Source: an uncultured Candidatus Saccharibacteria bacterium
GTDB taxonomy: Bacteria; Patescibacteriota; Saccharimonadia; Saccharimonadales; CAZLKQ01
Length of the DNA: 48,749 nt
NCBI GenBank assembly: GCA_964560175.1
Contig: CAZLKQ010000001.1
Span: forward strand, 1 to 48,749
Direction: 5' to 3'
Within the stretch, counting starts at the first letter, position 1, and each line of letters begins with the position of its first letter. A program made the position numbers and the translations under genes. The notes under the pieces were generated by a model. That model saw only the letters and a program-made list of their open reading frames with translations, ran no database searches and had not been told where the DNA came from. Below are positions 1,461-47,214 of the stretch, piece after piece.

Positions 1461-1573
1461 CCATTTTCCATTAGCCATTCACCATTTTCCATACGTTTTC
1501 TGTTTTCCGTTTCCCATGGAGGATGGCTTACGGTCAATGTACGGTGAATGGTAAACGGTAAATGGTGAACGGG
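1461..1573. repeat. Palindromic element with heptamer-repeat arms: (CCATTNN)n left, (NNAATGG)n right, CCATGG centre
   Basis: ccatttt ccattag ccattca ccatttt ccatacg ... cccatgg ... gtgaatg gtaaacg gtaaatg gtgaacg; lies between two co-oriented minus-strand genes. Confidence 0.8.
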
Positions 1574-1574
1574 A

Positions 1575-2552
1575 CTATAGCTCAGATCTGGAATTCAGGG
1601 CATTTGTCAGGTCGATCTGGTAGGTGGCCAGTTCGTTGTATCGGGCGACAGCTGCCCGGTAACTGGCGACGTGGCTGTTGTAGCGGGCAATGTCAGCATT
1701 GTAAGACCGGACCAGAGCATTGTGTTGTGGCACCAGACTGTTGTACTGGCTAGTCTCGCCTTGGTCAGATAAAGCTTGCAGCCGTCTTTCGCTGGCTTCG
1801 ATGGCAGCTTTTTTGCTATCCAGGGCTGATGCTTCGGCTTGTAGTCGAGTGTAGTCGTCGTCGATTTGTTGTTTCAGGGAGGTTAGTTCATTTTCATTGG
1901 CTTCAAAAACCGCCTCATATGAATCATAAAGACTGACGATTTGCTGACGGTCGGAGAAGTAGCGTGAGTAATATTTCTCCAGCGCCGGTGGGATGTCGTG
2001 GACTTCAGTCGGTACAATCGAGTGCAGCTCATTTGTTATATCAGTTTCGTTAGTTCCGGCATCGCGGTAGCGCTGGATGATCTCAGCCAAATGAGTGTCT
2101 GTTGTGGTAGCCAAAACTTGGCGTAATTGCTCGCCCAAGTCGCGTTGCTCGTCGGGCGACAATCTGACCCAGGCGCCGTGAAGCATTTCATGAGCGGCTG
2201 TTACCGGCTCAGCCGCCTCGATTTCTGGCAGAGTGATATCTAGTAAATATATTCTGTCGCCGTCGTAGCAGCCGATGACAAAAGCTTGTTCCTTGAAATT
2301 GCAGTTTTGATTAAATACTTGCTTGTCGTTGAGCCCGGGCAAGGAAGCGTAGAAAATGTCTCGGCCACGGCTCGTTAGGGTCGTTTCAGTTGCTAAACTG
2401 GCAAAGAATTCGGTCGGTTGGTAACTTTGCAGTCGCCACCAATCCTTTATTCCGTATCTGATTTGGGTGCTATGACCGAGTACAAACCAAACTGAGAGCA
2501 GAAATATTGGCCAAAAAATCAGCCGCCCGAAGAATTTAGCTCGACTAGTCAT
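1575..2552 (-). CDS. Membrane-anchored protein with HExxH motif (putative zinc metalloprotease) and C-terminal coiled coil
   Basis: N-terminal TM helix (LIFWPIFLLSVWFVLG), AAHEMLHGAW, C-terminal (R/S)YNxxxA heptad repeats (RSYNADIA RYNSHVA SYRAAVA RYNELAT); family not recognised. Confidence 0.5.
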   Translation of the reverse strand: MTSRAKFFGRLIFWPIFLLSVWFVLGHSTQIRYGIKDWWRLQSYQPTEFFASLATETTLTSRGRDIFYASLPGLNDKQVFNQNCNFKEQAFVIGCYDGDRIYLLDITLPEIEAAEPVTAAHEMLHGAWVRLSPDEQRDLGEQLRQVLATTTDTHLAEIIQRYRDAGTNETDITNELHSIVPTEVHDIPPALEKYYSRYFSDRQQIVSLYDSYEAVFEANENELTSLKQQIDDDYTRLQAEASALDSKKAAIEASERRLQALSDQGETSQYNSLVPQHNALVRSYNADIARYNSHVASYRAAVARYNELATYQIDLTNALNSRSEL

Positions 2553-2578
2553 GCTCTGATTATAAAACGTTTTAACTT

Positions 2579-2605
2579 TTTACAACTATAAACGAGTGCT
2601 ACAAT
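2579..2605 (+). promoter_or_regulatory. Candidate extended -10 promoter for tyrS, implying a leaderless mRNA
   Basis: TTTACA, 15-nt spacer, TGcTACAAT; the -10 ends 7 nt before the tyrS ATG at 2613 and no SD is present. Confidence 0.4.
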
Positions 2606-2612
2606 CTGTTGT

Positions 2613-3764
2613 ATGAGTAAAGACATCTTGAGTCGAAGAGTTGCAAAGGTGCTGCCTGACCCCAAAGGTCTAGAGAAACTAATGTCAAAACGTAAAATCA
2701 AGCTTTATCAAGGCTTTGACCCGACTGGCACTAGGCTGCATCTGGGACATTCCGTCGGCCTGCGCAAATTGATGGAGTTTGCTAGAGCCGGCCACGAAGT
2801 AATTTTCCTGTTTGGTACTGGTACGGTATTGGTCGGCGATCCCAGTTTGCGCGAACATGCCAGGGAACTGATCACCGAAGAGACAATTGAGAAAAATATC
2901 ACCGACTGGAAGAAACAGGCTGCTAAAATCGTCGACTTTGACAAGGTAAAAATTCTCAAAAATGGCGACTGGCTGACCAAACTGACGATAAAGGACATTA
3001 TCAAGATTGGTAGCCAGATCAGCGCTATCCAGCTTTTTAAACGCGAGAGTTTCAATCGCCGCTTAGAGGCCGGTGATACAGTTTGGTTCCACGAGACGAT
3101 GTACCCATTGCTTCAGGGCTACGACTCGGTGGTGATGGATGTCGATCTGGAGATCGGCGGCACCGACCAGGAATTCAACATGTTGATGGGCCGCGAATTG
3201 CAAAAGAAGATGAACAATCGTGAGAAATGGGTGCTTGAGACGCCGATGATCGTCGGCACTGATGGCAAGCCGATGAGTAAAACCAGTGGCAACTGCGTTT
3301 GGTTAGATGACGAACCAAGTGAAATGTATGGCAAACTGATGCGACTACCCGATGAGCACATTTGGCAATATCTCGAGCTGGTAACCGATCTGGACGGTGC
3401 TCAGATCAAAAAACTTGAATCGGCCAACGATCCCCGGGCCGCCAAAGCCCGGCTGGCCCGTGAAGTTGTCAGTATTTATCACTCCAAAAAAGCCGCTGAT
3501 GAAGCCGCTTCGGGTTTTGACAGTCAATTCAAAAAAGGCGAATTGCCAGACAAAATCCAAGAAGTGCAACTGGCAACTAGCAACTGGCAACTGGATGAGC
3601 TCCTAGTAAAAGCCGGCTTAACTAGTAGTAAATCAGAAGCTCGCCGGCTGGTCGCTCAGGGTGGCGTTCGTTTGAACCAGAAAAAGTTGGAAACTGAAGA
3701 AGTGAAAATAACCAGAGGCGATGTCCTGCAGGTGGGCAAACGCAAATTCGTCCGCATCAAGTAA
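2613..3764 (+). CDS. tyrS: Tyrosyl-tRNA synthetase
   Basis: Class I motifs HLGH and KMSKT; C-terminal S4-like domain (SKSEARRLVAQGGVRLN); 383 aa. Confidence 0.88.
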   Translation: MSKDILSRRVAKVLPDPKGLEKLMSKRKIKLYQGFDPTGTRLHLGHSVGLRKLMEFARAGHEVIFLFGTGTVLVGDPSLREHARELITEETIEKNITDWKKQAAKIVDFDKVKILKNGDWLTKLTIKDIIKIGSQISAIQLFKRESFNRRLEAGDTVWFHETMYPLLQGYDSVVMDVDLEIGGTDQEFNMLMGRELQKKMNNREKWVLETPMIVGTDGKPMSKTSGNCVWLDDEPSEMYGKLMRLPDEHIWQYLELVTDLDGAQIKKLESANDPRAAKARLAREVVSIYHSKKAADEAASGFDSQFKKGELPDKIQEVQLATSNWQLDELLVKAGLTSSKSEARRLVAQGGVRLNQKKLETEEVKITRGDVLQVGKRKFVRIK

Positions 3765-3794
3765 CCTTTATGTCATCCGTGGCATAATCAAGCC

Positions 3795-5822
3795 ATGGAG
3801 TTAAGCAATCAGGTTATTTTGATCAAGGGTGTTGGCGAGTCATTGGCCAGCGATCTGGATTCAGTCGGTATCAAAACTGTTGCTGATCTGCTGCTATATG
3901 TTCCGCGTCGCTACGACGATTACTCAAAGGTTGTCGCTACCAACGTCGCCAAACCCGGTCCGGTAACCATCAAAGGCCAGATCGAGAAAGTCTCCCAGCG
4001 CTATGTCCGCCGCGGTTTGCATGTGACCGAAGCGGTGATCAAAGATGGCACCGGCCGGCTCAAGATGGTCTGGTTCAATCAGCCTTACCGGGCGGCTAGC
4101 CTACCCAGAGACACAGAAGTTTATGTGTCCGGGCAGCTGGAGAGAATTAGTCAAGGTTTCGCGATTTCCCATCCTGGAGTCGAGAAGGTCAGCTCTTTCA
4201 CCAAAAATACCGCCCGCATAGTGCCAGTCTATCCCGAGACCAGACGCATCGGATCAGCCAGAATCCGCCAATTGATAGCCGTCGTTTTGCAATCAAAAAT
4301 CAGCCTGCCCGAGATTTTGCCAAAAAGTTTGGTAAATGATTTCGGTTTGCTGCCATGGCGAGAGGCCATCCAGACTATTCATTTTCCGAAAACTTTGGAG
4401 ATGGCCGAGCAGGCCCGCTGGCGACTGGGTTTTGATGAACTGCTAAGTCTTATGCTGGCGCACGCCTTGCTGAAGCGCCAACTCGGCGAGCTCAAGAGTC
4501 CAAAGATTCCATTTGATGAAAAGTTAGCCAAAAGCTTTGTGGCCAGTTTGCCATTCAAGCTAACTGATGCCCAGAGGCGGGCAGCTTGGGAAATATTAGG
4601 CGACGTACAGAAGGTTCATCCCATGAACCGACTACTGGAAGGCGACGTCGGCAGCGGCAAGACCGTTGTCGCTGCATTCGTAGCTCTGATGGCCCAACGG
4701 GCTAGTTTCCAGACCGCCGTCATGGCACCGACTGAAGTGCTGGCCAACCAGCACTATCAGACTTTTAAGGATTTGCGCAAAACCTTAAAAGTTAAAATTG
4801 AAATTTTGACGGGCTCAACTAAGACAGCCGAGCGCAAAAAAATCTTAGACGGCGTGGCAGATGGTTCGGTAGATATGCTCATCGGCACCCACGCTTTGAT
4901 CCAAAAAGGTGTCGACTTCAAAAATCTCGGACTGGTCGTAGTCGATGAACAACACCGTTTTGGTGTCCGCCAGCGCCAGGCCTTGGTCGGCAAAAGCCAC
5001 TTGGTGCCCCACGTGCTGAGCATGACGGCCACGCCAATTCCGCGCAGCCTGATGTTGACGGTCTACGGTGAGCTTGACGTGTCGATCCTCGATGAACTGC
5101 CTCCAGGCAGGCAAGCCATTGACACCAAAGTTATCTCCAACCGCGCCCGCGATTCGATCTACGCCAAGATAGATCAGCAGATTGAGGATGGCCGGCAGGT
5201 GTATGTGATTTGCCCGCTGGTTGAAGATTCGGACTTTTTAGGTGTCAAATCAGCGACCTCAGAATTTGAAAAGCTGCAAAAGACCGTTTTTGCCCACCGC
5301 AAAATTGGACTGTTGCATGGCCGGTTGAAGGCGGATGATAAAACTAAAATCCTGGATAGTTTCAAAAAAGGCCAAATCGAATTGCTGGTTAGCACGACAG
5401 TCGTCGAAGTTGGCGTCGATGTGCCAAATGCCACCATCATGATGGTCGAGGGCAGCGAACGGTTCGGCCTGGCTCAGTTGCACCAACTGCGCGGTCGGGT
5501 CGGTCGGGGCAAACATAAAAGTTATTGTTACCTTTTTACCAGCGCTGACATGAAATCCCGCGAACGACTGCGTTATCTCGAGCGCACAAGCAATGGTTTT
5601 GAGCTAGCCGAGGCTGACCTGCAACTGCGCGGACCAGGTGAGATATATGGCACTGTCCAACACGGCGAGCTGGACCTTCGGATCGCCAAACTGACTGACA
5701 TGAAACTGGTGTCAACTACTCAAAAAGCCGTCAAAGAATTTATTGCTGAGTATGATCTGAAGGATTATCCAGAACTTGCCGGGAGAGTCCATATGCAGCA
5801 AACGGTTGCCCACCTGCTTTAG
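3795..5822 (+). CDS. recG: ATP-dependent DNA helicase RecG
   Basis: Helicase motifs GDVGSGKT, DEQHRFG, TATPIPR, QLRGRVGRG; N-terminal wedge/OB region; 675 aa. Confidence 0.92.
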   Translation: MELSNQVILIKGVGESLASDLDSVGIKTVADLLLYVPRRYDDYSKVVATNVAKPGPVTIKGQIEKVSQRYVRRGLHVTEAVIKDGTGRLKMVWFNQPYRAASLPRDTEVYVSGQLERISQGFAISHPGVEKVSSFTKNTARIVPVYPETRRIGSARIRQLIAVVLQSKISLPEILPKSLVNDFGLLPWREAIQTIHFPKTLEMAEQARWRLGFDELLSLMLAHALLKRQLGELKSPKIPFDEKLAKSFVASLPFKLTDAQRRAAWEILGDVQKVHPMNRLLEGDVGSGKTVVAAFVALMAQRASFQTAVMAPTEVLANQHYQTFKDLRKTLKVKIEILTGSTKTAERKKILDGVADGSVDMLIGTHALIQKGVDFKNLGLVVVDEQHRFGVRQRQALVGKSHLVPHVLSMTATPIPRSLMLTVYGELDVSILDELPPGRQAIDTKVISNRARDSIYAKIDQQIEDGRQVYVICPLVEDSDFLGVKSATSEFEKLQKTVFAHRKIGLLHGRLKADDKTKILDSFKKGQIELLVSTTVVEVGVDVPNATIMMVEGSERFGLAQLHQLRGRVGRGKHKSYCYLFTSADMKSRERLRYLERTSNGFELAEADLQLRGPGEIYGTVQHGELDLRIAKLTDMKLVSTTQKAVKEFIAEYDLKDYPELAGRVHMQQTVAHLL

Positions 5823-5935
5823 ACCGTTCTCCGTTTGCCATTTACCGTTCACCATGCATCAACCCTTATCAGTTACCCATGGAAAATGGAGAACGGAAAA
5901 CGCATGGAAAGCGGCTAATTGAAAATGGAAAATGG
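5823..5935. repeat. Palindromic heptamer-repeat element of the CCRTT/AAYGG family
   Basis: accgttc tccgttt gccattt accgttc accatgc ... cccatgg ... aatggag aacggaa aacgcat; lies between recG and the next plus-strand ORF. Confidence 0.8.
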
Positions 5936-6785
5936 ATTGGTATACCTTATACTAATCACGATGTACTCAATAATTGGCACCAATAAAATGAATAACTGGC
6001 TCGGTGCCCACCAGAAAATCAATCGGCTGGCTTACCGCGGCCTAAAACAAGTTGTCCTGTGGCAAAACGAACCAGTCCGGGCGCGGTCCAAGTTGTCGAG
6101 TTTTCCAACTCTCAAAGCCATCCAACATTTTGAGGGCAGAAATGGCCCGGATGGACTGAAGATCAAATCACCCGGCTTGCATGAGCCAGAGCATTACTAC
6201 GATCCGCAAGCTGGCGCAGCCTCGCCACTGATTAAACTTTTGTCTGCACATGAGAAAGATTTGGCAGCAGCCTTAAAAGCTAAAAATATTGAAAAAGCGG
6301 CCTTCGAAGCCAGTTGGCTTGCTCATACCCTGGTTGACGGCTTAACGCCAGCTCACCATTACCCGTTTATCGATGAGCTGAGCATAATCCGCGGCGAAGG
6401 CAAAGAGACCCAAGACTCGGTAGCCAAAAAACTGGTCGTCAAAGGCAGTTCTACCAAAGATACCTTGAAAAAGACCTGGAAATTGGTTGGTGCCAAAGGT
6501 TTACTCTCAACCCATATCAATTTTGAGGCCGGTGTCGGTAGCGCCGTGACACCGCTACGGTTGCCACAGGCTGTACCTTCAGGCGTGGAGCTGGCTTTTG
6601 CCCGCAACCACGGCTTGGCGGCTGTTTTCATGGCTTCGGCCGATGCCATCGACCAACTCGAGCTGTACGAGCGCTTTTACCGGAATGGCTGGACTACCAA
6701 GCTTGGCCGCGATGTTCGAAATTTTTTGGTTCCCCAGATGATAAAGACTGTTACATTGGCTTGGCTGCTAGCGCTTGAGAAGTAG
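5919..6785 (+). CDS. Hypothetical protein, start uncertain
   Basis: Long ORF with no family recognised. The first codons lie inside the repeat arm, so ATG 5961 or 5988 is a more likely start. Confidence 0.5.
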   Translation: MKMENGLVYLILITMYSIIGTNKMNNWLGAHQKINRLAYRGLKQVVLWQNEPVRARSKLSSFPTLKAIQHFEGRNGPDGLKIKSPGLHEPEHYYDPQAGAASPLIKLLSAHEKDLAAALKAKNIEKAAFEASWLAHTLVDGLTPAHHYPFIDELSIIRGEGKETQDSVAKKLVVKGSSTKDTLKKTWKLVGAKGLLSTHINFEAGVGSAVTPLRLPQAVPSGVELAFARNHGLAAVFMASADAIDQLELYERFYRNGWTTKLGRDVRNFLVPQMIKTVTLAWLLALEK

Positions 6786-6938
6786 AACCCATTTCAAGAT
6801 AATTTTGTAGGCAGAAAGTGAGACAATTTTGAGCGAAAACCATGAAACACAAGGAAGCATACCCGTAGGTACGGTGACGAGTGGTGAGTGGTTTGCAGCC
6901 AAAATTGACCAGTTTATGGGGCAAAACTTTATTTTGAG

Positions 6939-7493
6939 ATGGGTTCTCTAATGATTAGAATAATTTCTGGTGATTTAAAAGGGCGGAAATTGATCACTCC
7001 AAAAGGTCAGCGGACTCATCCGATGGGTGATCGGGTACGCAGTGGTTTATTCAATGCCTTAGGGGATATCAAGGACTTGATGGTTCTAGATGCTTTCGGA
7101 GGTAGCGGTGCGCTGAGTGTTGAGGCACTGAGTCGCGGAGCTAGCTCAGCCCTAATCATTGAAATAGATGCCCAAGCTCAAGCCGTTATCGAAAAGAATA
7201 TTTTGGTGCTGGGTCTAAGGGGCATTGCTAAATTAGTCAAAGCTAACTGCTCCACTTGGAGCGACCGGAATCCGGAGCAGACTTTTGATCTGGTGTTTGC
7301 TGCCCCGCCTTACGACGATTTGCAGGAAGGCACCCTGCAAAAATTGGTGCGACACGTCAAACCCGGCGGCTTATATATTCTGGATTGGCCTGGTGGCAAG
7401 AAACTGCCAGAACTAGACGGACTTAATTTCATCAAAGAACTGCAATTTGGCGACGCCTGTATCGGCTTCTATCGCAAGGCGGCTATTCAGTAG
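6939..7493 (+). CDS. rsmD: 16S rRNA (guanine966-N2)-methyltransferase RsmD
   Basis: MIRIISGDLKGRKL N-terminus, SAM-binding DAFGGSGALSVEALSRGA, catalytic FAAPPY; alternative start ATG 6951. Confidence 0.85.
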   Translation: MGSLMIRIISGDLKGRKLITPKGQRTHPMGDRVRSGLFNALGDIKDLMVLDAFGGSGALSVEALSRGASSALIIEIDAQAQAVIEKNILVLGLRGIAKLVKANCSTWSDRNPEQTFDLVFAAPPYDDLQEGTLQKLVRHVKPGGLYILDWPGGKKLPELDGLNFIKELQFGDACIGFYRKAAIQ

Positions 7494-7529
7494 TCAGTAG
7501 TGTGTAGTCGGTATGGCTGCAAATATATT

Positions 7530-7558
7530 TTCAAAAGTTCAAAAAAAATAAGTATAAT
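7530..7558 (+). promoter_or_regulatory. Candidate sigma70-type promoter with a leaderless start
   Basis: TTCAAA, 17-nt spacer, TATAAT; the -10 ends 6 nt before ATG 7565 and no SD is present. Confidence 0.45.
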
Positions 7559-7564
7559 ATCACC

Positions 7565-7885
7565 ATGAATCTGACGAATGACGATCTCAAATCAATTAAG
7601 AAAGTTGTAAGCGACTCTATTGACGAGCGAGTCCCTAAGATTATCGATGAACGTGTGCCAAAGATCATTAATGAACAAGTGCCAAAGATTATCAATGAAC
7701 TCGTCCCAGGAATAGTAGCTGATGAGAATGGTGAGGTTACTCAGGACATAATTGGGCATATGTCCACAATGCATCGTGATCTCAAAGCTGATATTGGTCG
7801 AATTGAGTCAAAACTTGATCCGACGATCCACAGACTAGACGATTTAGAGTTCGAATTCAAAAAGTTCAAAGCAAAAACTGCTTAA
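7565..7885 (+). CDS. Small coiled-coil protein with four tandem 9-aa (27-nt) repeats
   Basis: IDERVPKII DERVPKIIN EQVPKIIN ELVPGIV; the N-terminus MNLTNDDLKSIKKVV resembles ORF 38756 (MSLTTTDFQEIRTIV). Confidence 0.6.
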   Translation: MNLTNDDLKSIKKVVSDSIDERVPKIIDERVPKIINEQVPKIINELVPGIVADENGEVTQDIIGHMSTMHRDLKADIGRIESKLDPTIHRLDDLEFEFKKFKAKTA

Positions 7886-7920
7886 TCCCATAATAAATAA
7901 AAGTTCAAGAAACGACTGGT

Positions 7921-8007
7921 TGGTGGGGATGAAAGGACTTGAACCTTCACGAACCGAAGTTCACTAACTCCTGAAGCTAGCGCGTCTACCAATTCCGCCA
8001 CATCCCC
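7921..8007 (-). tRNA. tRNA-Leu(CAG) with encoded CCA
   Basis: Reverse complement GGGGATGTGGCGGAATTGGTAGACGCGCTAGCTTCAGGAGTTAG...GGTTCAAGTCCTTTCATCCCCACCA; cloverleaf with long variable arm; anticodon loop TTCAGGA. Confidence 0.9.
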
Positions 8008-8038
8008 ATATATTTATAGATTCTATATCAGATGAGCG

Positions 8039-8068
8039 TTGTCATAAAGCCTTGAGGGTTGGTATGAT
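8039..8068 (+). promoter_or_regulatory. Candidate promoter for the FAD oxidase gene
   Basis: TTGTCA, 18-nt spacer, TATGAT; GAGGT SD lies before the TTG start at 8088. Confidence 0.4.
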
Positions 8069-8087
8069 GTGTTAATGCTAGAGGTAA

Positions 8088-9728: not shown

Positions 9729-9801
9729 GGATTGGTAATTAGTAGCTAGGAATTAGGAAATAGTAGTCGGAATGACGTAATTTATCTATACTTATTTGAT
9801 C

Positions 9802-9886
9802 GGGGATGTGGCGGAATTGGTAGACGCGCTTGGTTTAGGACCATGTGTCTTAGGGCGTGGAGGTTCGAGTCCTCTCATCCCCACCA
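9802..9886 (+). tRNA. tRNA-Leu(UAG) with encoded CCA
   Basis: GGGGATGTGGCGGAATTGGTAGACGCGCTTGGTTTAGGACCATG...GGAGGTTCGAGTCCTCTCATCCCCACCA; anticodon loop TTTAGGA; its 5' 29 nt are identical to the other tRNA-Leu. Confidence 0.9.
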
Positions 9887-10067: not shown

Positions 10068-10142
10068 GCGCTGCGCTTGCTCATGGCAAGCCAGTGGAAA
10101 GAATGACCCTGAGCGCAGTCGATGGGCCATTACCTCCAGATT

Positions 10143-24148: not shown

Positions 24149-24258
24149 CTCCGTTAACTATTCTCCATTTACCATTCTCCGTACATTAACCATTTACCAT
24201 TAACTGTGAATGGACAGTGGAAAACGTATAGAAAACGGTGAACAGTGAATGGATAATG
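24149..24258. repeat. Palindromic heptamer-repeat element of the CCATT/AATGG family
   Basis: ctccatt taccatt ctccgta ... catttac cattaac tgtgaat ggacagt ggaaaac ... gaatgga taatg. Confidence 0.8.
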
Positions 24259-24451
24259 ATTTCTGAGTTGACAGTGAGCGTATAATCCCATAAACTTACA
24301 TTTAAGAAGCAGAAATGAGGGCCCTGTATTCTTTTGGCCAAAAGAATATGGAGCCTTTCATGCGCCTTCCACTAAAAAACAACCAAAGGCATGTAATGGA
24401 CGCACTGCTACCGGCCAGAGTGCGTTTAATCTAGCGAGGACTTTTTACATT

Positions 24452-30900: not shown

Positions 30901-31782
30901 CCGCGAATCGAAGAACTCCTCGAAGCCCGAACGCCAAAAGGTCAAGCCTTCCTGTCAGAAATTGAAGGCACCGTCACAGTCCGCGATGATGGCAATGACT
31001 ATTTGGTAGAAGTCAAATCTGACAATGCCGAGATCGTCTCGGTGCCTACAAAGAGTGCCACTGTTGTCGTCAAAAATGGCGCCAATGTCAACAAAGGCGA
31101 TATTTTGGCCAGCGATAACAAATCGAGCAAGCCGCTAGTTTCTCCGATCAAGGGCACCGTGGAGTTGATAAAGGGCGAGATTTTGGTGACTGGTGAGAAG
31201 GGCGAAGTCGTCCGCTACCGGATCCCGGGTTTCAAAGCCTTGGTTGTCAAAACCGGCGATCGGGTTGGTATGGGTGAGCGCTTGACCTATGGTTCATTGA
31301 ACCTTCAGGATCTGATGCGCCTGCGCGGCATCGAAATGACCCAGCGCTACATCATGGGCGAAATCCAAACCATGTACGCCGCCCAGGGCCAAGTCATTGC
31401 CGATAAGCACCTCGAGCTGGTTGTCAGGCAGATGTTCTCGCGGGTACAAGTCGATGATCCAGGTGATAGCCTGTTTGTCATCGGTGACATTGTCTCGCTG
31501 ACTAGTGTGGTTGAGCAAAATCATAAACTGGCCGCTGCCAAGAAACACCCGGCCATTTACAGCCAGATGCTACTGGGAATTGCCAAAGTCGCCACTTGGT
31601 CTGACAGCTTCCTGTCAGCCGCGTCTTTCCAGGACACTACCCGGGTACTGATCAATGCCGCCACCAGCGGTCGGATCGACACTCTATACGGCCTGAAGGA
31701 AAATGTCATCATCGGCCGCAAGATCCCAGTCGGTACTGGCGCTGCCAGCTATGAGCACCCAACAGAGGTTGATGATGTCTAA
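27976..31782 (+). CDS. rpoC: DNA-directed RNA polymerase subunit beta'
   Basis: [12 protein letters not shown] catalytic motif; ATGA overlap with rpoB; 1268 aa. Confidence 0.97.
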
Positions 31783-31796
31783 CATATCTGTTAGAT

Positions 31797-31878
31797 TAAG
31801 TTCTAAAGTTCATAAAGTTTTTAAAGTTCGTAAAGGCGAACTGACTTTTAACTTTCAACCTTATAAACTTTTAACTAG
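31797..31878. repeat. Palindromic element with 9-nt TAAAGTTCN repeats and complementary AACTTT arm
   Basis: taaagttca taaagtttt taaagttcg taaagg ... ttttaac tttcaac cttataaac ttttaac; followed by ctagcAAATCGGAGATTT and the rpsL GTG. Confidence 0.75.
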
Positions 31879-31895
31879 CAAATCGGAGATTTGTA

Positions 31896-32309
31896 GTGCC
31901 TACAATTAACCAATTAGTCCGAAATCCGCGCAAGAGCGCCAAGGCTAAATCGAAATCTCGGGCTCTACATAGCACCTATAATGCTCTGAAGATTCGCACC
32001 TATGAGAAAAATTCACCGCTGAAGCGTGGTGTTTGTATCAAAGTCACCACCAAGACACCAAAGAAACCAAACTCAGCGCTACGCAAAGTCGCCCGTGTCC
32101 GTTTGACCAATGGCCAAGAAGTCTGGGCCTATATCGGCGGCGAAGGCCACAATCTCCAAGAGCACGCAGTGGTTTTGATCCGAGGCGGTCGAGTACCAGA
32201 TCTGCCTGGAGTTCGTTACCATATTGTTCGAGGATCATTGGATCTCCAAGGCGTTCAAAATCGCAAAAACGGCCGCTCTAAATACGGCGCAAAAAAGGCC
32301 AGCAAATAA
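31896..32309 (+). CDS. rpsL: 30S ribosomal protein S12
   Basis: PTINQLVR...; [15 protein letters not shown]; GTG start. Confidence 0.96.
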
Positions 32310-38421: not shown

Positions 38422-38428
38422 TTTTCGA

Positions 38429-38458
38429 GTAATTAGTAACTAGGAATTAGCAATTAGT
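38429..38458. repeat. One-armed heptamer array GNAAYTA x4
   Basis: gtaatta gtaacta ggaatta gcaatta; near-identical to the array at 9735-9770 (gtaatta gtagcta ggaatta ggaaata). Confidence 0.7.
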
Positions 38459-38743: not shown

Positions 38744-38755
38744 GGAAGTAAAATC

Positions 38756-39878: not shown

Positions 39879-39958
39879 GTATTGCTCATGCTTGCAAATC
39901 GGGTAAGTATATACCAAGCTAATCGAATGAATGAAAAAAAAGGTTAAAGTAGTAATTT

Positions 39959-40336: not shown

Positions 40337-40472
40337 TCGCAAAAGTATTGCTCATGCTTGTCACATATTGACAGTGATATAATTTTGGTATGAATCCCGT
40401 TAGAACTAAGTATTTTATCGAAGACAAAACCTGCCGCTTTTTAATTAGCGTAAAAAACGGAGTTCTAACGGG

Positions 40473-40739
40473 ATGAATAACGTATCTTTGTCCTTACCAT
40501 TTCTCATTCAAGGCGATAGCCCACAGCACAAGGCCATGAGGCGTCATCAGTTGTATGATTTACTCGAAAAAGACAATGAACTGCTAGCGGATATTCTCGA
40601 CCTTCAACGCAAGCTGGCTAAGAAAAAAGATAAGGAGTCTCGCGAATTAGTTGACGAGCTCGGTGAAATCGTTCAGGAATTTCTCGGTCTGAATCGTCAA
40701 AAATTAGAACTTACCAAGGCCATCAATAAAGATACCTAA
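40473..40739 (+). CDS. Orphan ORF K (88 aa), coiled coil
   Basis: Its start is sequestered in a perfect 14-bp inverted repeat and coupled (ATGA) to a 28-codon uORF at 40390-40476. Confidence 0.5.
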   Translation: MNNVSLSLPFLIQGDSPQHKAMRRHQLYDLLEKDNELLADILDLQRKLAKKKDKESRELVDELGEIVQEFLGLNRQKLELTKAINKDT

Positions 40740-40741
40740 TT

Positions 40742-41053
40742 ATGCCCACGATACCTAAACGTCAATTTGACGAGGTGGGCAACGAATTAGCTGGTTTACA
40801 ATCGGAAACCATAGAGAGTAAATCAGCAGATACGCCGATAGTCGAACAGACCAGAGATGTTATAGCGCGTACGGTGGTGCAAACTTTCTTTTTGCTGCTA
40901 GGTGTAATTCTGATCGGCGTGCCGGTCTACAATGCCAATGTAGCCAGCGATCTCCGACTTGATCTACCTGATCTGCTGCAACAATATTCAGCGATTTTGG
41001 GCCCTGTGCTAGGCTTTGTCATCGGCTACTATTTCAAGAGCAAAAATGACTAA
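40742..41053 (+). CDS. Orphan ORF L (103 aa), two TM helices
   Basis: VVQTFFLLLGVILIGVPVY and ILGPVLGFVIGYYF. Confidence 0.5.
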   Translation: MPTIPKRQFDEVGNELAGLQSETIESKSADTPIVEQTRDVIARTVVQTFFLLLGVILIGVPVYNANVASDLRLDLPDLLQQYSAILGPVLGFVIGYYFKSKND

Positions 41054-41486
41054 TCTCGAAGGCTGCAAATTTTGTGATCCTAAAAGTGAAGATCTAAGAC
41101 CACGCTTAATTAATCTCGGCAGCTGGTGTTATTCAGCTTTATCCAATCCTCGCATAACTCGCGGACATGCTCTGGTGATTCCGAACCGACACGTTGAGGA
41201 CCCAACTGAAGTTGATGAAAGAGATTTTATATACATACAAAGAGAGATCATAAAATTACAGAGGAAAATTCTGCTCGAAATTGCTCCGGGTGTTGATGTT
41301 TGGCAAAAATATCAGCCGTTTGTCGAGGAAGGGCACGCAGGAACAAAAATGAACCATGTTCATTATCACGTGATTCCCAGAAATCCTGCCGACGGTTTAC
41401 TGATGTCACCCGAACCAGGAACCGATACATTCTCGCCGCTTTGCGAAGAAGAGCGTATCGACATGCTCGAAATTTTGGGACCATAA
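41046..41486 (+). CDS. HIT (histidine triad) family protein
   Basis: HVHYHVIPR triad; ATGACTAA overlap with ORF L; start trimmed from 41016. Confidence 0.78.
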   Translation: MTNLEGCKFCDPKSEDLRPRLINLGSWCYSALSNPRITRGHALVIPNRHVEDPTEVDERDFIYIQREIIKLQRKILLEIAPGVDVWQKYQPFVEEGHAGTKMNHVHYHVIPRNPADGLLMSPEPGTDTFSPLCEEERIDMLEILGP

Positions 41487-41511
41487 AATCTGTATCTGCT
41501 AAAATACGCTT

Positions 41512-41766
41512 ATGACTAACCGTAAGCGTGAATCAAACAGTGTCTATTTTCTGAAAATTGTCTTTTTCTTCGTGATTGGCACCATTTGGATTCGCTTTGG
41601 GGCCGATTCCAGAACTGGAGGAGGTATTCCAATTGGTTTGCTGTTGGGGATTATTTTTGCCAATCACGACCACTTCCAAATCGACCAAAAAATTGAATTT
41701 GCGATCCTGCTGATTGCTGCCATCCTAAGCTTTGTTTTCCCTATCGGCGCAGTCATAGTCGTCTAA
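41512..41766 (+). CDS. Orphan ORF N (84 aa), membrane protein
   Basis: Three hydrophobic segments; start ATGACTAAC echoes the HIT gene start ATGACTAAT. Confidence 0.5.
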   Translation: MTNRKRESNSVYFLKIVFFFVIGTIWIRFGADSRTGGGIPIGLLLGIIFANHDHFQIDQKIEFAILLIAAILSFVFPIGAVIVV

Positions 41767-41841
41767 TCTGCCTGTCCCGCAACTTTTCCTGAGTGTAGTA
41801 ATAAGCAATCTGATTATGAAATCTCAAGAAACGGTGCGGGA

Positions 41842-41871
41842 TTGACACATCTGTTGTACATCTGGTAGTAT
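41842..41871 (+). promoter_or_regulatory. Candidate extended -10 promoter for rplC and the downstream S10-operon genes
   Basis: TTGACA, 18-nt spacer, TGgTAGTAT; about 150-nt structured leader follows. Confidence 0.5.
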
Positions 41872-42024
41872 TTAATCAATTGCACTCGGCTGCGTTTATT
41901 TGGATTGCGGCAAGAGACTGGTCTGTAAGTTCTACGATAAATCAGGACCAAAGATCCTGAGCGAAGTCGAAGGATACTGCAAATCAGCCTCCAGTGCAGT
42001 TTGACTTAAAATTAGGAGATAGAC

Positions 42025-42648
42025 ATCAAAGCTATCATTGGCACCAAGATCGGTATGACCCAGATCCTGACAGAGGATGGTACGGCTGTGCCTGTAACCT
42101 TGGTCCATGCCGAGCCAAACGTCGTTACCCAGAACAAAACAGATGAAGCCAATGGCTACAACGCCGTCCAGCTAGGCGCCGGCCGAGCCAAAAGACCCGC
42201 CAAACCCCAAGAGGGACATGCCAAGAAAGCCGGTCTAGACTTTACCCCGCGGATTATGCGCGAGGTACGCGACCTCGAGTTTGACCCCGAAACTATAAAA
42301 CCCGGAGCCAAAGTCGAAGTCACGAACTTTGAAGTCGGCGACGAAGTCGATGTCACGGGAACTAGCAAAGGTAAAGGCTTCGCCGGAACCGTCAAACGTC
42401 ATAATTTTCTAACCAGCCCAAAATCTCACGGCGGTAAAGGCTATATCCGAAAACCTGGCTCGATCGGCTCTATGTATCCGCAAAAAGTCATGAAGGGCAA
42501 ACGAATGGCCGGCCGCATGGGCTTTGATAAAACTACCATCGTCGATCTCAAAGTCGTGCTAGTAGACGCCGAAAATAATTTACTCGGTATTAGAGGCGCC
42601 TTGCCTGGGCCGCGCAAAGGCACAGTCATAGTGCGAGGTTCTAAATAA
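42025..42648 (+). CDS. rplC: 50S ribosomal protein L3, probable non-AUG (ATC) start
   Basis: The conserved N-terminus (I)[13 protein letters not shown] is in frame upstream of the first ATG (42055); AGGAG SD lies 6 nt before ATC 42025; in-frame TAG at 42013. Confidence 0.88.
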
Positions 42649-43301
42649 TGTCCGTTATAACTTTCTCAGCAACTGGTACAAAATCAACAACTGTGGCTAA
42701 ACTGCCAAAAGATATTTTTGACCAAAAAATCGAATCACATGATCTGCTGCACCAAGTTTTTGTAGCTCAACACGCTGCCCTACGCTCCAATTCTGCCAAA
42801 ACCTTGGATCGCGGTGAAGTCCGCGGCGGTGGCAAGAAGCCCTGGAAGCAAAAGGGCACCGGCCGGGCACGACACGGCTCGATCCGCAGCCCAATCTGGC
42901 GCGGCGGCGGTGTGACTTTCGGCCCTTCAACTGACCGAAATTACACCAAAAAAGTTACTACGGCAGCCAAGCAAAAAGCTTTGCGCCAAGTCCTGACGCT
43001 CTGCGCCAAGGACGGCAGCCTGTCGATCATCAAGTCCTTCGTCTCCAAAGACGGCAAAACGGCACCAATGGAGTCGTTGCTAAAAAAACTAAACTTGGCT
43101 CGACCGCTAGTGGTTGTTATTGAAAAGCGCGACGACGTAACTGTCCAGGCAACTCGCAACCTTAAGGACCTGGATCTGGTGACGGCTAGCTACCTGAATG
43201 TCTATCGACTAGCCAATGCCCGACACATTTTGCTGACTGAAGGGGCAATCGCTGTGATTGAGGCCGGCCCAAAACAGACTAAACCGGAGACCAAAGAATG
43301 A
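42648..43301 (+). CDS. rplD: 50S ribosomal protein L4
   Basis: [29 protein letters not shown]. Confidence 0.95.
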
Positions 43302-43603
43302 ATACGCCGCTAGTTATCCAGCCACTCATCAGCGAAAAGAGCTTTATTCAGGCTGAAAAAGGCGTCTATACCTTCAAAGTTCCTCTCACAGCTAACAAAC
43401 AAACGATCGCCAAGACGATTGCTGCTGATTACAAGGTGACAGTTGAAGCTGTTAGAACGGTATTGTCTAAGGGCAAAGCCAAGCGGATCGTCCGCAAACG
43501 CCAACAGCCTAGCGTTGGCCATCGCTCAGATTTTAAAAAAGCTTACGCTACGCTCAAAAAAGGCGATAAAATTGCGGTCTTTGCCGAAGGAGCTGAGTCA
43601 TGA
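43298..43603 (+). CDS. rplW: 50S ribosomal protein L23
   Basis: ISEKS...YTFKV; ATGA overlaps on both sides. Confidence 0.92.
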
Positions 43604-44436
43604 GTATAAAAGTCTTCAAACCAACCACTCCCGGACAGCGCGGCATGACAACCCGTGATTTTAGCGAGATCACCAGCAAAAAACCTGGCGCCCGCTCTTT
43701 ACTCAAGATCAAAAAAATTACATCGGGCCGCAATAATCAAGGCCGGATAACCACTAGGCATCGCGGCGGCGGGGCCAAACGTTTTTATCGATTGGTCAAT
43801 CACAAGTTAGCCTCTGGCATCTCGGCTACTATTGAGCAGATCGAATACGATCCAAACCGTTCGGCCAATATCGCTTTGCTGCGCGAAAAAGGCGGCAAAC
43901 CGCACTACATTTTGGCAGCCGATGGTATGAAGCCCGGCCAAGTCGTGAGTTCCGGTGCTGACGCAGCTATCGAAAATGGCAATCGATTGCCTATACACGC
44001 GATTCCACTGGGCAGTTCAATATATGGCATCGAGCTGCAACCGGGCCGCGGGGCTCAGATGGTTCGAAGTGCTGGCGCCCGAGCCCAGCTAATGGCCCGT
44101 GAAGGCGAACTTGCCCAGATCAAATTACCTAGCGGCGAAGTTCGCAAGGTCAGCATCAATTGTATGGCCAGTATTGGATCGGTCGGCAACGCCCAGCACC
44201 AAAACGTCAAGATCGGCAAAGCTGGCCGCAAACGTCATATGGGCATCCGGCCATCAGTTCGTGGTAAGGCCATGAACCCTGTTGACCACCCGATGGGCGG
44301 CGGCGAAGGCCAAACCGGCCCGGGCCGCAACCCAAAGACGCCTTGGGGCAAAATAGCTATTGGACTCAAGACTCGCAGACGGAAATATACTCAGAAAATG
44401 ATCGTCAAGACTCGGGCAGAAAGCAAGAGGCGCTAA
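43600..44436 (+). CDS. rplB: 50S ribosomal protein L2
   Basis: KPTTPGQRG...; HRGGG; VRGKAMNPVDHPMGGGEG. Confidence 0.97.
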   Translation: MSIKVFKPTTPGQRGMTTRDFSEITSKKPGARSLLKIKKITSGRNNQGRITTRHRGGGAKRFYRLVNHKLASGISATIEQIEYDPNRSANIALLREKGGKPHYILAADGMKPGQVVSSGADAAIENGNRLPIHAIPLGSSIYGIELQPGRGAQMVRSAGARAQLMAREGELAQIKLPSGEVRKVSINCMASIGSVGNAQHQNVKIGKAGRKRHMGIRPSVRGKAMNPVDHPMGGGEGQTGPGRNPKTPWGKIAIGLKTRRRKYTQKMIVKTRAESKRR

Positions 44437-44442
44437 GATGCA

Positions 44443-44524
44443 GCAACTAGCAACTAGCAACTGGCAACTAGGAAAAAAATTCGATCAAAGAGTCCTAATT
44501 GCTAATTGCCAAATCCAAATTGCC
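44443..44524. repeat. Palindromic heptamer element: (GCAACTR)x4 left arm, (GCYAATT-like)x4 right arm
   Basis: gcaacta gcaacta gcaactg gcaacta gg ... cctaatt gctaatt gccaaat ccaaatt gcc; lies between rplB and rpsS. Confidence 0.8.
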
Positions 44525-44541
44525 ACAAACGGAGGCTTGTT

Positions 44542-44829
44542 ATGAGCCGCAGCCTCAAAAAAGGACCATTTCTGGATCCAAAACTAATGAAGAAAATCGA
44601 AAACAGCGGTGACTCTAGAGCGCCTATCAAGACTTGGGCGCGAGCTAGCTCGATCTCCCCGGAGATGGTCGGCAAAACTATCGCTGTTCACAACGGCCGG
44701 GTACACGTGCCGGTATTGATTTCCGAAAATATGGTCGGGCACAAGCTCGGCGAATTCGCGCCAACCCGCAAGTTCCGTGTCCACGGCGGCAAATTAGCTA
44801 AAGGCCAGGGTAGTGGGGAATCATCATGA
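44542..44829 (+). CDS. rpsS: 30S ribosomal protein S19
   Basis: [10 protein letters not shown]...; GGAGG SD; start trimmed from 44506, which lies in the repeat arm. Confidence 0.95.
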
Positions 44830-45230
44830 AAGTCCAAGCTTTGTCTAAAAATCTGCGAATTTCGCCGCGAAAAATTGGTTTGGTTGCAGGTCTAGTCAGA
44901 GGCCGCAGTGTCGACGACGCTTTGGTTATCCTCCAACATACTCCTAAAAAAGCCGCGCCAATGCTGGCTAAAATAATCTCCAGTGCTTCAGCTAATGCCC
45001 GGTACAAGCATTCATCGGCTAGTAGTGATTTAACTATCGAAGTTTTAGATGTTGGCTATGGTGTGCGAATGCGCCGCTATTTCGCGGCAGCCCACGGCAG
45101 AGCCAGGAAATTTCAAAAACTCAGCAGCAATGTCCGAGTCGTACTAGACGTAGCCGACAAGAAAGCTACTAAAAGTAGTGAGAAGTCTGTAGTCGGTAGT
45201 GAGAAAAAGAATAAAGAGACAAAGTCATGA
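44826..45230 (+). CDS. rplV: 50S ribosomal protein L22 with Lys/Ser-rich C-terminal tail
   Basis: [16 protein letters not shown] core; the tail [21 protein letters not shown] is partly encoded by GTAGT heptamer repeats. Confidence 0.93.
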
Positions 45231-45237
45231 TTCAGTT

Positions 45238-45321
45238 TGTAAAGTTCATAAAGTTAAAAGTTCATAAAGTTATGTTCACTCAGAGGTCACCTTCTACTTT
45301 ATACCTTCTACTTTCTACTAG
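45238..45321. repeat. Palindromic element of the TAAAGTTCA family
   Basis: gtaaagttca taaagtt aaaagttca taaagtt ... ccttctacttt ataccttctacttt ctactag; followed by ctagaAAATCGGAGATTT and the rpsC ATG. Confidence 0.75.
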
Positions 45322-45339
45322 AAAATCGGAGATTTTCTG

Positions 45340-45975
45340 ATGGGACAGAAGGTCAATCCAATTAGTTTCCGCTTAATCGACAGCAAAGATTGGCGTTCTA
45401 AATGGTTTGCCGGTGGCAAGCAGTATGTGGATTTTCTGCTCGAAGATCTCAAGATCCGCAAGTTGATCGATGACACACTGACCCGCCGAGCCAGTATCCA
45501 AAAAGTCGACATTGAACGAACCGCGAATCAAATAACCATAACTATCCATTCCGCAAAAGCCGGTGTGGTCATCGGTCGTGGCGGCGCTGGAGTAACTCAA
45601 CTGAAGAATCAAATTCAAAATATTGTCGGACGAGCAGTCCGGCTAAACATCGAAGAGGTCAAAAAGCCTGAGCTGTTCGCCAGAATTGTGGCTGAAAATA
45701 TCGCCCACCAATTGGAAAAACGCATTTCGTTCCGCCGTGCCATGAAAGCCTCGGCTGCCGCCACCATGCGCGTCGGGGCCAAGGGCGTCAGAATCCAATT
45801 GGCCGGCAGGCTAAATAACGCCGATATGGCTAGACGCGAAAAAGAAATTCAGGGATCAGTGCCACTCCACACCATCCGGGCCGACATCGACTACGCTTTG
45901 GCCGTCGCCAAAACCAGTGCCGGCACCATCGGCGTCAAGGTCTGGATATATAAAGGCGAGAAGTTCGAGGAATAA
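45340..45975 (+). CDS. rpsC: 30S ribosomal protein S3
   Basis: MGQKVNPISFRL; KH domain GRGGAGV. Confidence 0.95.
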   Translation: MGQKVNPISFRLIDSKDWRSKWFAGGKQYVDFLLEDLKIRKLIDDTLTRRASIQKVDIERTANQITITIHSAKAGVVIGRGGAGVTQLKNQIQNIVGRAVRLNIEEVKKPELFARIVAENIAHQLEKRISFRRAMKASAAATMRVGAKGVRIQLAGRLNNADMARREKEIQGSVPLHTIRADIDYALAVAKTSAGTIGVKVWIYKGEKFEE

Positions 45976-45980
45976 TATGA

Positions 45981-46073
45981 GTTATAAAGTCCATAAAGTT
46001 ATAAAGTCCATAAAGTCTAGCTTAAGATTAGGGTTTCAAGCTTGCAACTTTCAACTTGCAACTTTCAACTTGA
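45981..46073. repeat. Palindromic element: (ATAAAGTYC)x4 left arm, (GCAACTT TCAACTT)x2 right arm
   Basis: ataaagtcc ataaagtt ataaagtcc ataaagtc ... gcaactt tcaactt gcaactt tcaactt. Confidence 0.8.
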
Positions 46074-46092
46074 GCCACCACTGGGGGCGAGC

Positions 46093-46518
46093 ATGTTGAT
46101 GCCTAAAAAAACCAAATTTAGAAAAGTCCGCAAAGGCAAAATAAGAGGCCCAGCGCGCAGCGGCTATTCAGTCAGCTTCGGCCGTTTTGGCTTGCAGAGT
46201 TTGGAAGCTGAGCGTATCAACTCCCGCCAAATCGAAGCCGCCCGTCGAGCTATGACTCGCTACGTCAAGCGCGGTGGCAAGATCTGGATTCGTATCTTTC
46301 CGCACACTCCAGTTACCCGCAAGCCCCAGGACGTAAAAATGGGCAGCGGCAAAGGCAATCCGGAATTCTTCGTGGCTAAAGTCCATGTCGGAACAGTGAT
46401 TTTTGAGATGGACGGAGTGGCTGAGGATGTGGCCAAAGAGGCTATGCGCCTGGCCGGACACAAATTGCCCGTTAGGACCCGCTTTATCGCCAAACACGTC
46501 CAAGGAGAACAGGTATGA
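46093..46518 (+). CDS. rplP: 50S ribosomal protein L16
   Basis: [11 protein letters not shown]...; start trimmed from 46042, which lies in the repeat arm. Confidence 0.95.
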
Positions 46519-46712
46519 AAGCTTTAGAATTTAGAAAAAAGACCGAAGTCGAAGTGTCCAAACAGTTGAGCACTTTGAAAGCGAAAATCGCTGACCTGGT
46601 ACGTGATGCTTCGACAGCAGAGAAAAGAAATGTCCGGGAAATTAGAGCTATCCGAAAAGACATCGCTCGTGCCTTGACTGTTTTACACGAAAAGCAAAAG
46701 GAGGCCAAATAA
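46515..46712 (+). CDS. rpmC: 50S ribosomal protein L29
   Basis: 65 aa, helical, in the conserved position; ATGA overlap with rplP. Confidence 0.9.
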
Positions 46713-46822
46713 TGTTTGGCCAATTCTCAAGGGAAAAGAGCAGCCAGAGTTTGGATTCATTCCAAACCCTGCGCGTTGAGAAAAACCGCAAGTTTGTCTC
46801 AAAAGCCGGAGGCGTAAAATAA
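46712..46822 (+). CDS. 36-codon micro-ORF exactly filling the rpmC-rpsQ spacer
   Basis: [36 protein letters not shown]; TAATG overlap at both ends. Confidence 0.3.
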   Translation: MFGQFSREKSSQSLDSFQTLRVEKNRKFVSKAGGVK

Positions 46823-47094
46823 TGTCTCTGCGTGTAATCACCGGCATTGTGGTCTCGGACAGAACGCCAAAGACGATCATCGTTAAGGTCGATCGTACCA
46901 AGCGCCACCCGATTTATTCGAAAAACTATCTGTTGAGCAAAAAATTTACCGCCCACGATGAAGCTCGTGAAGCAAAAATTGGCGACAAAGTACAGATCAT
47001 CGAGTCGACGCCAATCAGTAAGACCAAACGCTGGCGGCTACAGGCAGTCGTTGAAAAAGCTAAAACTTTGGACAGCACTGAGGCGGTGTCATGA
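46822..47094 (+). CDS. rpsQ: 30S ribosomal protein S17
   Basis: GIVVSDRTPKTIIVKVDRTKRHPIYSK. Confidence 0.93.
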   Translation: MSLRVITGIVVSDRTPKTIIVKVDRTKRHPIYSKNYLLSKKFTAHDEAREAKIGDKVQIIESTPISKTKRWRLQAVVEKAKTLDSTEAVS

Positions 47095-47104
47095 CTTCAT
47101 CACT

Positions 47105-47214
47105 CCCATTCACCATTCACCATTATCCATTATCCATACATTATCCATTTACCATTAACCGTGAACGGACAACGGTAAACGCTTGGAAAGCGGAAAACGG
47201 TAAACGGATAATGG
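47105..47214. repeat. Palindromic heptamer-repeat element of the CCATT/AAYGG family
   Basis: cccattc accattc accatta tccatta tccatac ... ccattaaccgtgaacgg ... acaacgg taaacgc ... aaaacgg taaacgg ataatgg. Confidence 0.8.

Follow-up and report, generated by a model that had tools for sequence, protein, structure and literature searches.

A dispersed heptamer-built palindrome of Saccharibacteria with an open frame that may bridge the genes on either side

Gene context and architecture of the four palindromes

The DNA analyzed here, contig CAZLKQ010000001.1 (48,749 nt, hereafter the window) from an uncultured Candidatus Saccharibacteria bacterium, carries four long intergenic palindromes, the arms of which are made of tandem heptamers of the type CCRTTNN. 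They are located at the junctions ORF1575/radA, recG/next open reading frame (ORF), clpP/rpoB and rpsQ/rplN, gene contexts that had been given in an initial annotation prepared from the sequence alone and were confirmed by Pfam. The palindromes themselves were found where that annotation had placed them, and their limits were refined as listed below. As described in the following, they belong to a dispersed family in which one reading frame is often free of stops through both arms and overlaps, at its two ends, the stop and start codons of the neighboring genes.

1461..1572, minus strand: copy 1 (ORF1575/radA), same architecture as the others, genes on the minus strand
5824..5935, plus strand: copy 2 (recG/next ORF), same architecture, nearly intact, no ATG start
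24151..24259, plus strand: copy 3 (clpP/rpoB), same architecture, treated as degenerate
47106..47214, plus strand: copy 4 (rpsQ/rplN), the sole copy in the window that is fully intact, nhmmer E about 1e-23
47091..47237, plus strand: 48-codon mini-ORF belonging to copy 4, with 2 and 3 stops in the remaining frames

The four sites are true copies of one repeat family. When their eight arms were aligned on both strands, no gaps were needed except for 3 nt at the center, so that the description of the arms as tandem heptamers was borne out with even more regularity than had been noticed. Each arm consists of four CCRTTNN heptamers, one 11-mer (CCRTRCRTTNN), which shifts the heptamer phase within the arm, and two further heptamers, and is followed by its mirror image, giving a total length of 109-112 nt. 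A search of the window for CCATTNNCCATTNNCCATT allowing up to 2 mismatches yielded 20 matches versus 0.10 expected from shuffles, every one of them inside the four sites, and a 49-nt pattern made from the invariant columns matched, at up to 2 mismatches, only these eight arms (0 expected). The switch point between the arms, said to lie often at CCATGG, does so in copies 1 and 2, whereas copies 3 and 4 have the centers CTGTGAATGG and CCGTGAACGG, respectively. Identity among the window copies was 70-77% (the range for copies within one genome being 60-77%), and complementarity between the two arms of one copy was 61-63%. In each heptamer it is the C and T that are invariant, and the R and NN positions vary freely, whether the frame is intact or not; the conservation period in the element is 7 nt, not 3 nt.

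The family in metagenome contigs

An architecture-specific pattern of invariant columns, derived from this window, was used for a metagenome search. It matched 112 metagenome contigs, the chance expectation being estimated to be of the order of 0.1-1, and for 107 of the 128 matched arms an inverted partner was present with no more than 5 mismatches (9 or more in random sequence). The arms matched in this way give 99 elements, 91 of them unique, that fall into length classes of 109, 112, 119 and 122 nt; in terms of copy number, there are 4 elements in the 48.7-kb window and 136 on 109 metagenome contigs. The number of units per arm (four heptamers, the 11-mer and two, or up to three, heptamers) is fixed and, together with the phase break, has been kept across many genomes.

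Proteins flanking the metagenome copies carry Patescibacteria or Saccharibacteria names, the naming of the hosts resting on a handful of proteins. Ribosomal proteins encoded on contigs with the element share 55-75% identity with those of Saccharibacteria relatives, and the closest named Saccharimonadia homologues of the L5 protein encoded in the window share about 60% identity with it. One candidate relative of the window organism, L122 (P0002), was rejected; its 'L5' is a chimeric, Firmicute-like protein of 295 residues with duplicated domains, encoded on a 1.2-kb contig, and appears to be an assembly or tandem artefact. Exact-protein matching yielded a single contig identical to the window, 1.8 kb in length. 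The window sequence was also assembled independently (L001 1-62, SRR6868923), and that assembly ends at the center of the copy-4 palindrome, so that the elements break short-read assemblies. No match to the family was obtained in viral contigs and plasmids, no Rfam family was assigned to the element at the gathering score or at E <= 1, and a full-text literature search retrieved no description of a heptamer-palindrome family. This repeat family of Saccharibacteria/Patescibacteria is apparently new to the literature.

Arrays of such short units might have arisen as independent microsatellite expansions or as chance palindromes, without any family being involved. Plain arrays of four CCATTNN units, searched for in GTDB with one genome per species, were indeed returned from a range of unrelated phyla (cyanobacteria, Bacteroidota, Acidobacteria, Mesorhizobium and others), and at about 17 of the 120 other-phylum loci retrieved an inverted partner array is located close by, in most cases with the arm order reversed. 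However, the architecture described above was present in 0 of these 120 loci as compared to 112 metagenome contigs of one lineage; the four window copies align without gaps and share the 11-mer; and a copy from another organism in a non-orthologous context (L201) shares 83% identity with copy 4, which is more than the window copies share with one another. It is therefore extremely improbable that no family exists. Among the arrays in unrelated phyla, those of the form (GAATGGT)n followed by (ACCATTC)n have the opposite arm order, a variable copy number and no 11-mer; they were seen in L049 and L069 (Mesorhizobium), L074/L082/L104 (Pyrinomonadaceae), L039/L109 (Cnuella), L060 (Anaerolineae) and L111 (Prevotellaceae), and may be a separate phenomenon.

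A reading frame across the gene junctions

The initial annotation missed a reading frame that would couple the flanking genes. This frame is best seen in copy 4, in which the ATG of the mini-ORF overlaps the rpsQ stop codon (ATGA) and its TGA overlaps the rplN ATG (again ATGA), with a GGGAG Shine-Dalgarno (SD) motif for rplN located 7 nt ahead of the second ATGA. The junction reads GAGGCGGTGTCATGA, then 143 nt ending in GGGAGCTACCAATGA, then TACAGCAAG..., and in the relatives L123 and L124 the S17/L14 junction has, in place of copy 4, a single SD-N-TCATGA-TAC.

In the wider family, frame 0 (CCG TTT ACC...) was free of stops through both arms in 37 of the 48 strongly polar copies, while each of the other five frames was open in only 1-3 of these 48 copies and contained 3-4 stops on average. 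Column shuffling among elements left 21.3 +/- 2.5 copies open (maximum 30), compared with 34 of 62 in the actual set. An [AG]TGA was located within 28 nt upstream in 37 of the 53 co-oriented cases and was in phase with the frame in 31 of these 37, about 12 being expected. A total of 48 intact mini-ORFs with a median length of 51 codons was identified, 35 of which begin with ATGA, meaning that the start overlaps the upstream TGA. At the other end, 31 of the 48 terminate in ATGA, GTGA or TTGA and 6 more in CTGA (TGATG in L137, L147 and L236), so that the stop often overlaps the next start. All intact ORFs lying between co-oriented genes were on the sense strand (33/33). In addition, ATGA was present within 25 nt upstream of the element in 34 of the 53 cases versus a background of 8%, and an SD-like motif within 30 nt downstream in 35 of the 53 versus a background of 11%.

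That the copies lie only between co-oriented genes, as originally stated for the window, is true there and does not extend to the wider set, in which crude gene calls put 52 elements in co-oriented, 9 in divergent and 6 in convergent contexts. Orientation by a position-weight model agreed with transcription at 41:12, yet it called the four window copies 'opposite' with weak scores and was abandoned; the reading-frame criterion used in its place puts copy 4 on the sense strand.

The remaining window copies depart from this arrangement to different degrees. In copy 2, a single frame is open between a TTG at 5806 and a TGA at 5920-5922, the latter separated by 2 nt from an ATG at 5925, the probable start of the gene after recG. 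Copy 1, in which one sense frame is open through the element without an ATG, GTG or TTG start, was treated as degenerate. In copy 3 each of the three sense frames is interrupted by stops, and a promoter-like site and a 190-nt leader lie between this copy and rpoB. Downstream of copies 1 and 3 the genes are preceded by longer leaders in which promoter-like sites occur; directly after copy 3, about 155 nt upstream of rpoB, the sequence TTGACA-17-TAAACT (24268-24296) suggests a promoter of its own for rpoB.

Promoter-like motifs were also noticed within the element, the 3′ arms (sense) of all four copies containing TGGAAA, TTGGAA or TAGAAA and, after 17-18 nt, GA(T/A)AAT (5905-5933, 24229-24257, 47183-47212 and, on the minus strand, about 1464-1492). 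A promoter role of the 3′ arms was considered and rejected, such sites being no more frequent than in shuffles. In the ORF list, TTG starts at 5919, 44506 and 46042 push the downstream genes into 3′ arms; the true starts are likely 5925 (ORF after recG), 44542 (rpsS) and about 46098 (rplP).

The flanks of the element have features of their own. A small hairpin around the upstream stop/start, ATGAC-NNN-GTCAT(T/C), is common to many copies at unrelated junctions (5′ flanks of L126, L127, L131, L137, L147, L190, L197, L198, L207 and L226), and many copies also share a mini-palindrome around the downstream SD motif, e.g. CACCGGAGGTG or GGCCGGAGGCC. The sharing of these flank hairpins at unrelated junctions suggests that the mobile unit may exceed the heptamer palindrome.

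Folding of the palindrome

The arms had been predicted to pair in several registers. In agreement with this, the best register gave 35-36 Watson-Crick pairs over 58 positions and registers shifted by 7 were almost equal to it; compared with shuffled controls, the folding energies of the window copies had z-scores of -2.8 to -3.6. It is conceivable that the element is a structured RNA within polycistronic mRNA, for RNase III-type processing, as a 3′ stabilizer or as a pause site or terminator, and that the open frame is secondary. Along with the z-scores, this explanation has in its favor that the element begins 0-20 nt past a stop codon, that RNases act on transcribed Correia and ERIC elements (PMC10969869), and that the two strands differ in the wider family: the sense RNA was the stabler one in 37 of 53 copies (37 vs 15, p = 0.014; mean fold energy, -36.9 kcal/mol for sense versus -32.7 kcal/mol for antisense), and on the sense strand G.U pairs exceeded A.C mismatches in 34 copies, the reverse being the case in 15.

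However, the conserved structure that a processing or stabilizer hairpin would be expected to show did not emerge. The two arms of one element were complementary at 30.7 of 50 positions, as against 32.9 +/- 0.3 for random partners (91 elements), and in the sense-oriented alignment 73.0% of the cells were paired, as against 75.0 +/- 0.4 for shuffled partners; the arms thus pair less than shuffled partners do. Compensatory changes between the arms were not detected, the covariation score being below all 500 shuffles, and RNAalifold gave no consensus structure. The element is no canonical terminator either, as had been recognized from the outset: a terminator scan reported none at the four sites, and no T run (a U tract in the RNA) follows the 3′ arm. 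With regard to the strand difference, the antisense strand of the window copies folds at least as well as the sense strand, and the asymmetry is accounted for by the avoidance of stop codons in one frame; moreover, a ribosome on the frame would melt the stem. A structured RNA as the primary function is therefore considered unlikely, while the greater stability of the sense RNA in 37 of the 53 copies indicates that a hairpin role could coexist with a bridging role.

The encoded peptide

The peptide predicted from intact copies has the consensus M..PFTVHRSPFTxRYPFTVI..WLxANGKCMVNGKWLMVNG. Database searches revealed 92 predicted 'hypothetical' proteins (at 90% clustering) that match it, and 341 cluster representatives at E <= 1e-3; one of the proteins, P0216, is 78% identical to the copy-4 peptide, and in a few others (P0286, P0337) the element is fused to the N-terminus. 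With these matches, a recognizable consensus and 48 intact ORFs coupled to their neighbors, the family could be viewed as a functional, multi-copy small protein of about 50 residues with PFTV... and ...VNGKW repeats, the DNA palindrome being incidental. Several results speak against this. Among 11 independent close pairs, differences at codon positions 1, 2 and 3 numbered 71, 56 and 75, respectively (p = 0.23), with no excess at the third position, and synonymous/nonsynonymous changes were 37/127 in frame versus 45/117 and 21/135 out of frame, so that selection at the amino-acid level was not found in these 11 pairs. In the rpoA/rplQ orthologous pair the DNA is 84% identical and the peptides about 71%, the flanking genes being 85% and 76% identical. 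Apart from one noise hit, the peptide has no Pfam family at E <= 1, and AlphaFold2 (64 sequences) predicted no secondary structure (mean confidence score pLDDT 52, pTM 0.14). The period of conservation is 7 nt and not 3 nt, and many copies keep the DNA pattern after loss of the frame. A functional small protein is accordingly rated as quite unlikely, and the peptide is probably a by-product and not the point.

The same persistence of pattern raises a third possibility, namely that CC..TT at a 7-nt spacing is a DNA-level platform read by a mobilizing enzyme or by a nucleoid or replication factor, with frame and hairpin as side effects. The C/T columns are invariant regardless of frame, the unit number and the 11-mer break are kept across genomes, and some constraint besides pairing or coding must hold the pattern. 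Near the copies, however, neither a candidate protein nor a recurrent neighbor gene was found, and a platform does not account for why 33/33 cases lie in sense orientation, why the ATG is in phase or why the stops overlap. Taken alone, it appears to us distinctly improbable, but it is compatible with, and not exclusive of, the explanation preferred below.

Other palindromes and repeats in the window

Besides copy 4, the rpoBC/ribosomal protein cluster contains five palindromes made of other units, as listed below together with the only Rfam matches in the window.

31772..31909, plus strand: rpoC/rpsL palindrome, AAAGTTnnn 9-mers, 45-codon ORF, other frames with 8 and 3 stops
44438..44545, plus strand: rplB/rpsS palindrome, AGCAACT then CTAATTG units, 35-codon ORF ending in ATGA at the probable rpsS start
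45227..45340, plus strand: rplV/rpsC palindrome, AAAGTT units, 37-codon ORF starting at ATGA and ending in TGATG
45977..46099, plus strand: rpsC/rplP palindrome, AAAGTY then TTTCAAC units, 40-codon ORF ending in TGATG at the probable rplP start
48578..48721, plus strand: rplE/rpsN related element, CAATTTT-type heptamers in the same layout of four heptamers, 11-mer and two heptamers
7924-8007, minus strand: tRNA gene
9802-9883, plus strand: tRNA gene

A 47-codon ORF runs across the related element at 48578..48721, overlapping the neighboring genes through GTGA at its start and TGATG at its end. Copy 4 and the five palindromes each have exactly one stop-free frame, the start and stop of which overlap the neighboring genes, and window spacers devoid of such palindromes mostly have stops in every frame. 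The other-unit palindromes of the window follow the same bridging principle.

A weaker example of the family had been suggested at 6786-6938, between ORF5925 and a gene for an rsmD-like methyltransferase. This region is indeed a long, 153-nt imperfect hairpin (-43.9 kcal/mol; z = -3.2 for 6790-6935), but it lacks the heptamer build, gives no match to the family model, contains stops in every frame and is not a member of the family. One-armed arrays of AATTAGN heptamers, alike in sequence and with no inverted partner seen, were noticed at 38422-38458 (tuf/rpsJ) and 9729-9775 (upstream of a tRNA gene), and four GCAACTG heptamers in tandem at 3566-3594, within the tyrS coding region (2613-3764).

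Gain and loss at gene junctions

Comparison of orthologous spacers, which had been proposed as a check for gain and loss, revealed both filled and empty junctions among relatives. L134 carries the element at atpG/atpD and L200 carries it at both atpA/atpG and atpG/atpD, whereas in L237-L242, the AtpD proteins of which belong to the same 90% cluster, the atp junctions are plain 4-nt overlaps. The presence of empty ATGA junctions in close relatives (AtpD at least 90% identical) where others are filled indicates that the element has been gained or lost. Placement in the ribosomal operon also differs by Saccharibacteria lineage, copies being found at rpoA/rplQ, rplD/rplW or rpsK/rpsD, and two relatives have no copy. 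Among the three roles put forward at first (RNA processing or stabilizer hairpin, platform for a repeat-reading protein, miniature mobile palindrome), the last fits these observations best.

Based on these results, our preferred explanation, which we hold with moderate confidence, is that of a dispersed mobile palindrome resembling Rickettsia palindromic elements (RPE) and miniature inverted-repeat transposable elements (MITE), tolerated at gene junctions as a translated-through mini-cistron. Its translation, coupling role, mobility and insertion at ATGA are what we infer from the arrangement of the DNA. The palindrome, of about 110-120 bp and specific to Saccharibacteria/Patescibacteria, would be gained and lost at gene junctions, typically inserting at a stop/start overlap ATGA and leaving one ATGA on each side; it would bring an SD motif just before the second ATGA, thereby aiding the start of the next gene. 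Well-kept copies would then constitute a mini-cistron of about 45-55 codons, with a start overlapping the upstream stop, one frame open through both arms and a stop overlapping the downstream start. Ribosomes would terminate and reinitiate twice and melt the hairpin in passing, and coupling of the flanking genes would consequently survive the 140-nt insertion. The mismatches between the arms may be explained likewise, because the palindrome would have to stay stop-free in one frame.

Several points weigh against this explanation. The frame has been lost in about half of the 91 elements, including two to three of the four window copies, and the sense RNA is the stabler one in most of the wider family, as described above. 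The flank test for a target duplication found no direct repeat in 67 of 88 elements and nothing beyond the ambiguous ATGA, which on both sides could be a 4-nt duplication or a part of the element; no recurrent transposase was found beside the copies, only housekeeping neighbors; and at any single site the event may have been loss, not gain. Gene contexts on the metagenome contigs were taken from a simple ORF caller of our own, and the selection test comprised 11 independent pairs only. Finally, bridging does not account for the heptamer build and for CC..TT at a 7-nt spacing.

By extension, it is tentatively suggested that the palindromes represent a class of mobile DNA fitted to the densely packed operons of Saccharibacteria/Patescibacteria, 'selfish mini-cistrons', which would target ATGA junctions, bring their own SD motif and restart codon, do no harm because ribosomes would read across the palindrome, and comprise several unit families (CCRTTNN, CAATTTT, AAAGTTnnn); this wider claim is held with less confidence than the one for the CCRTTNN family. 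If ribosomes do read through, a repeat of this kind may enter essential coupled operons, such as those for ribosomal proteins, ATP synthase and rpoA, with coupling unbroken, and the junctions would provide a natural test system for termination-reinitiation across a 50-bp stem. For annotation, hundreds of 'hypothetical' Patescibacteria proteins of about 50 residues appear to be these elements, which also serve as markers of recent genomic change in a lineage of which few members have been cultured.

Comparison with known repeats and with translational coupling

The element is not a CRISPR array, as stated initially, since CRISPR repeat-spacer units measure about 28-37 nt and adjoin cas genes, whereas the element has a 7-nt period and occurs as single, scattered copies in operon spacers beside radA, recG, clpP, rpoB and ribosomal protein genes. 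TIGR-Tas arrays, which occur in this bacterial group, consist of 36-nt repeat-spacer units next to tas genes (PMC12045711) and were ruled out by unit size and context. Like the REP/BIME/REPIN sequences, the family comprises abundant intergenic imperfect palindromes, often between co-oriented genes. However, REPs, which cluster in BIMEs, are 20-40 nt long, GC-rich and linked to RAYT transposases (PMC3333891), whereas the present elements are 110-120 nt long, AT-rich and periodic and contain a frame, so that their exclusion from the REP/BIME group was justified.

Heptamers in tandem are known from other bacteria. The TAACTGA repeats of Beggiatoaceae, the cyanobacterial STRR and the four-heptamer elements of Geobacter occur in spacers, including those of ribosomal protein operons, and a translational role or a mobile origin has been proposed for them (PMC4679880, PMC2700814). 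Those repeats are arranged head-to-tail in variable copy number, with 169 direct sets and 1 indirect set in BOGUAY, whereas the window family has a fixed inverted layout, an 11-mer break and a spanning ORF.

Small non-autonomous hairpins co-transcribed in operons, such as Correia/NEMIS, ERIC, BOX and RUP, include some with promoters or small ORFs and some that are substrates of RNase III or RNase E (PMC10969869). The family resembles MITEs in its small size (109-122 nt; MITEs are under about 500 bp), multiple copies, variable presence and lack of an internal transposase, but differs in having periodic heptamer arms, a bridging frame and copies that share no more than 60-77% identity within one genome. 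Clear terminal repeats with a target duplication were not found, apart from the ambiguous ATGA, nor was a partner transposase beside the copies.

A parallel also exists to the Rickettsia palindromic elements, dispersed repeats that measure about 100-150 bp, occur in reduced genomes and contain an open frame translated along with host genes, which are not disrupted by it (PMC10969869). The two share a palindromic repeat with an open frame, which in the present family is open in 37 of the 48 polar copies and presumably translated. They are likened here by description and not by sequence: the Rickettsia elements belong to another host lineage, their arms are not tandem heptamers, and they sit in frame inside host genes, whereas the window family forms separate mini-cistrons that overlap their neighbors. 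If our explanation is correct, it extends the Rickettsia idea of selfish DNA within coding regions to gene junctions. Both ends of the mini-ORF are classic stop/start overlaps (ATGA, TGATG), of the kind treated in a review of translational coupling (PMC12548453), except that here two of them are placed in series around an inserted palindrome.

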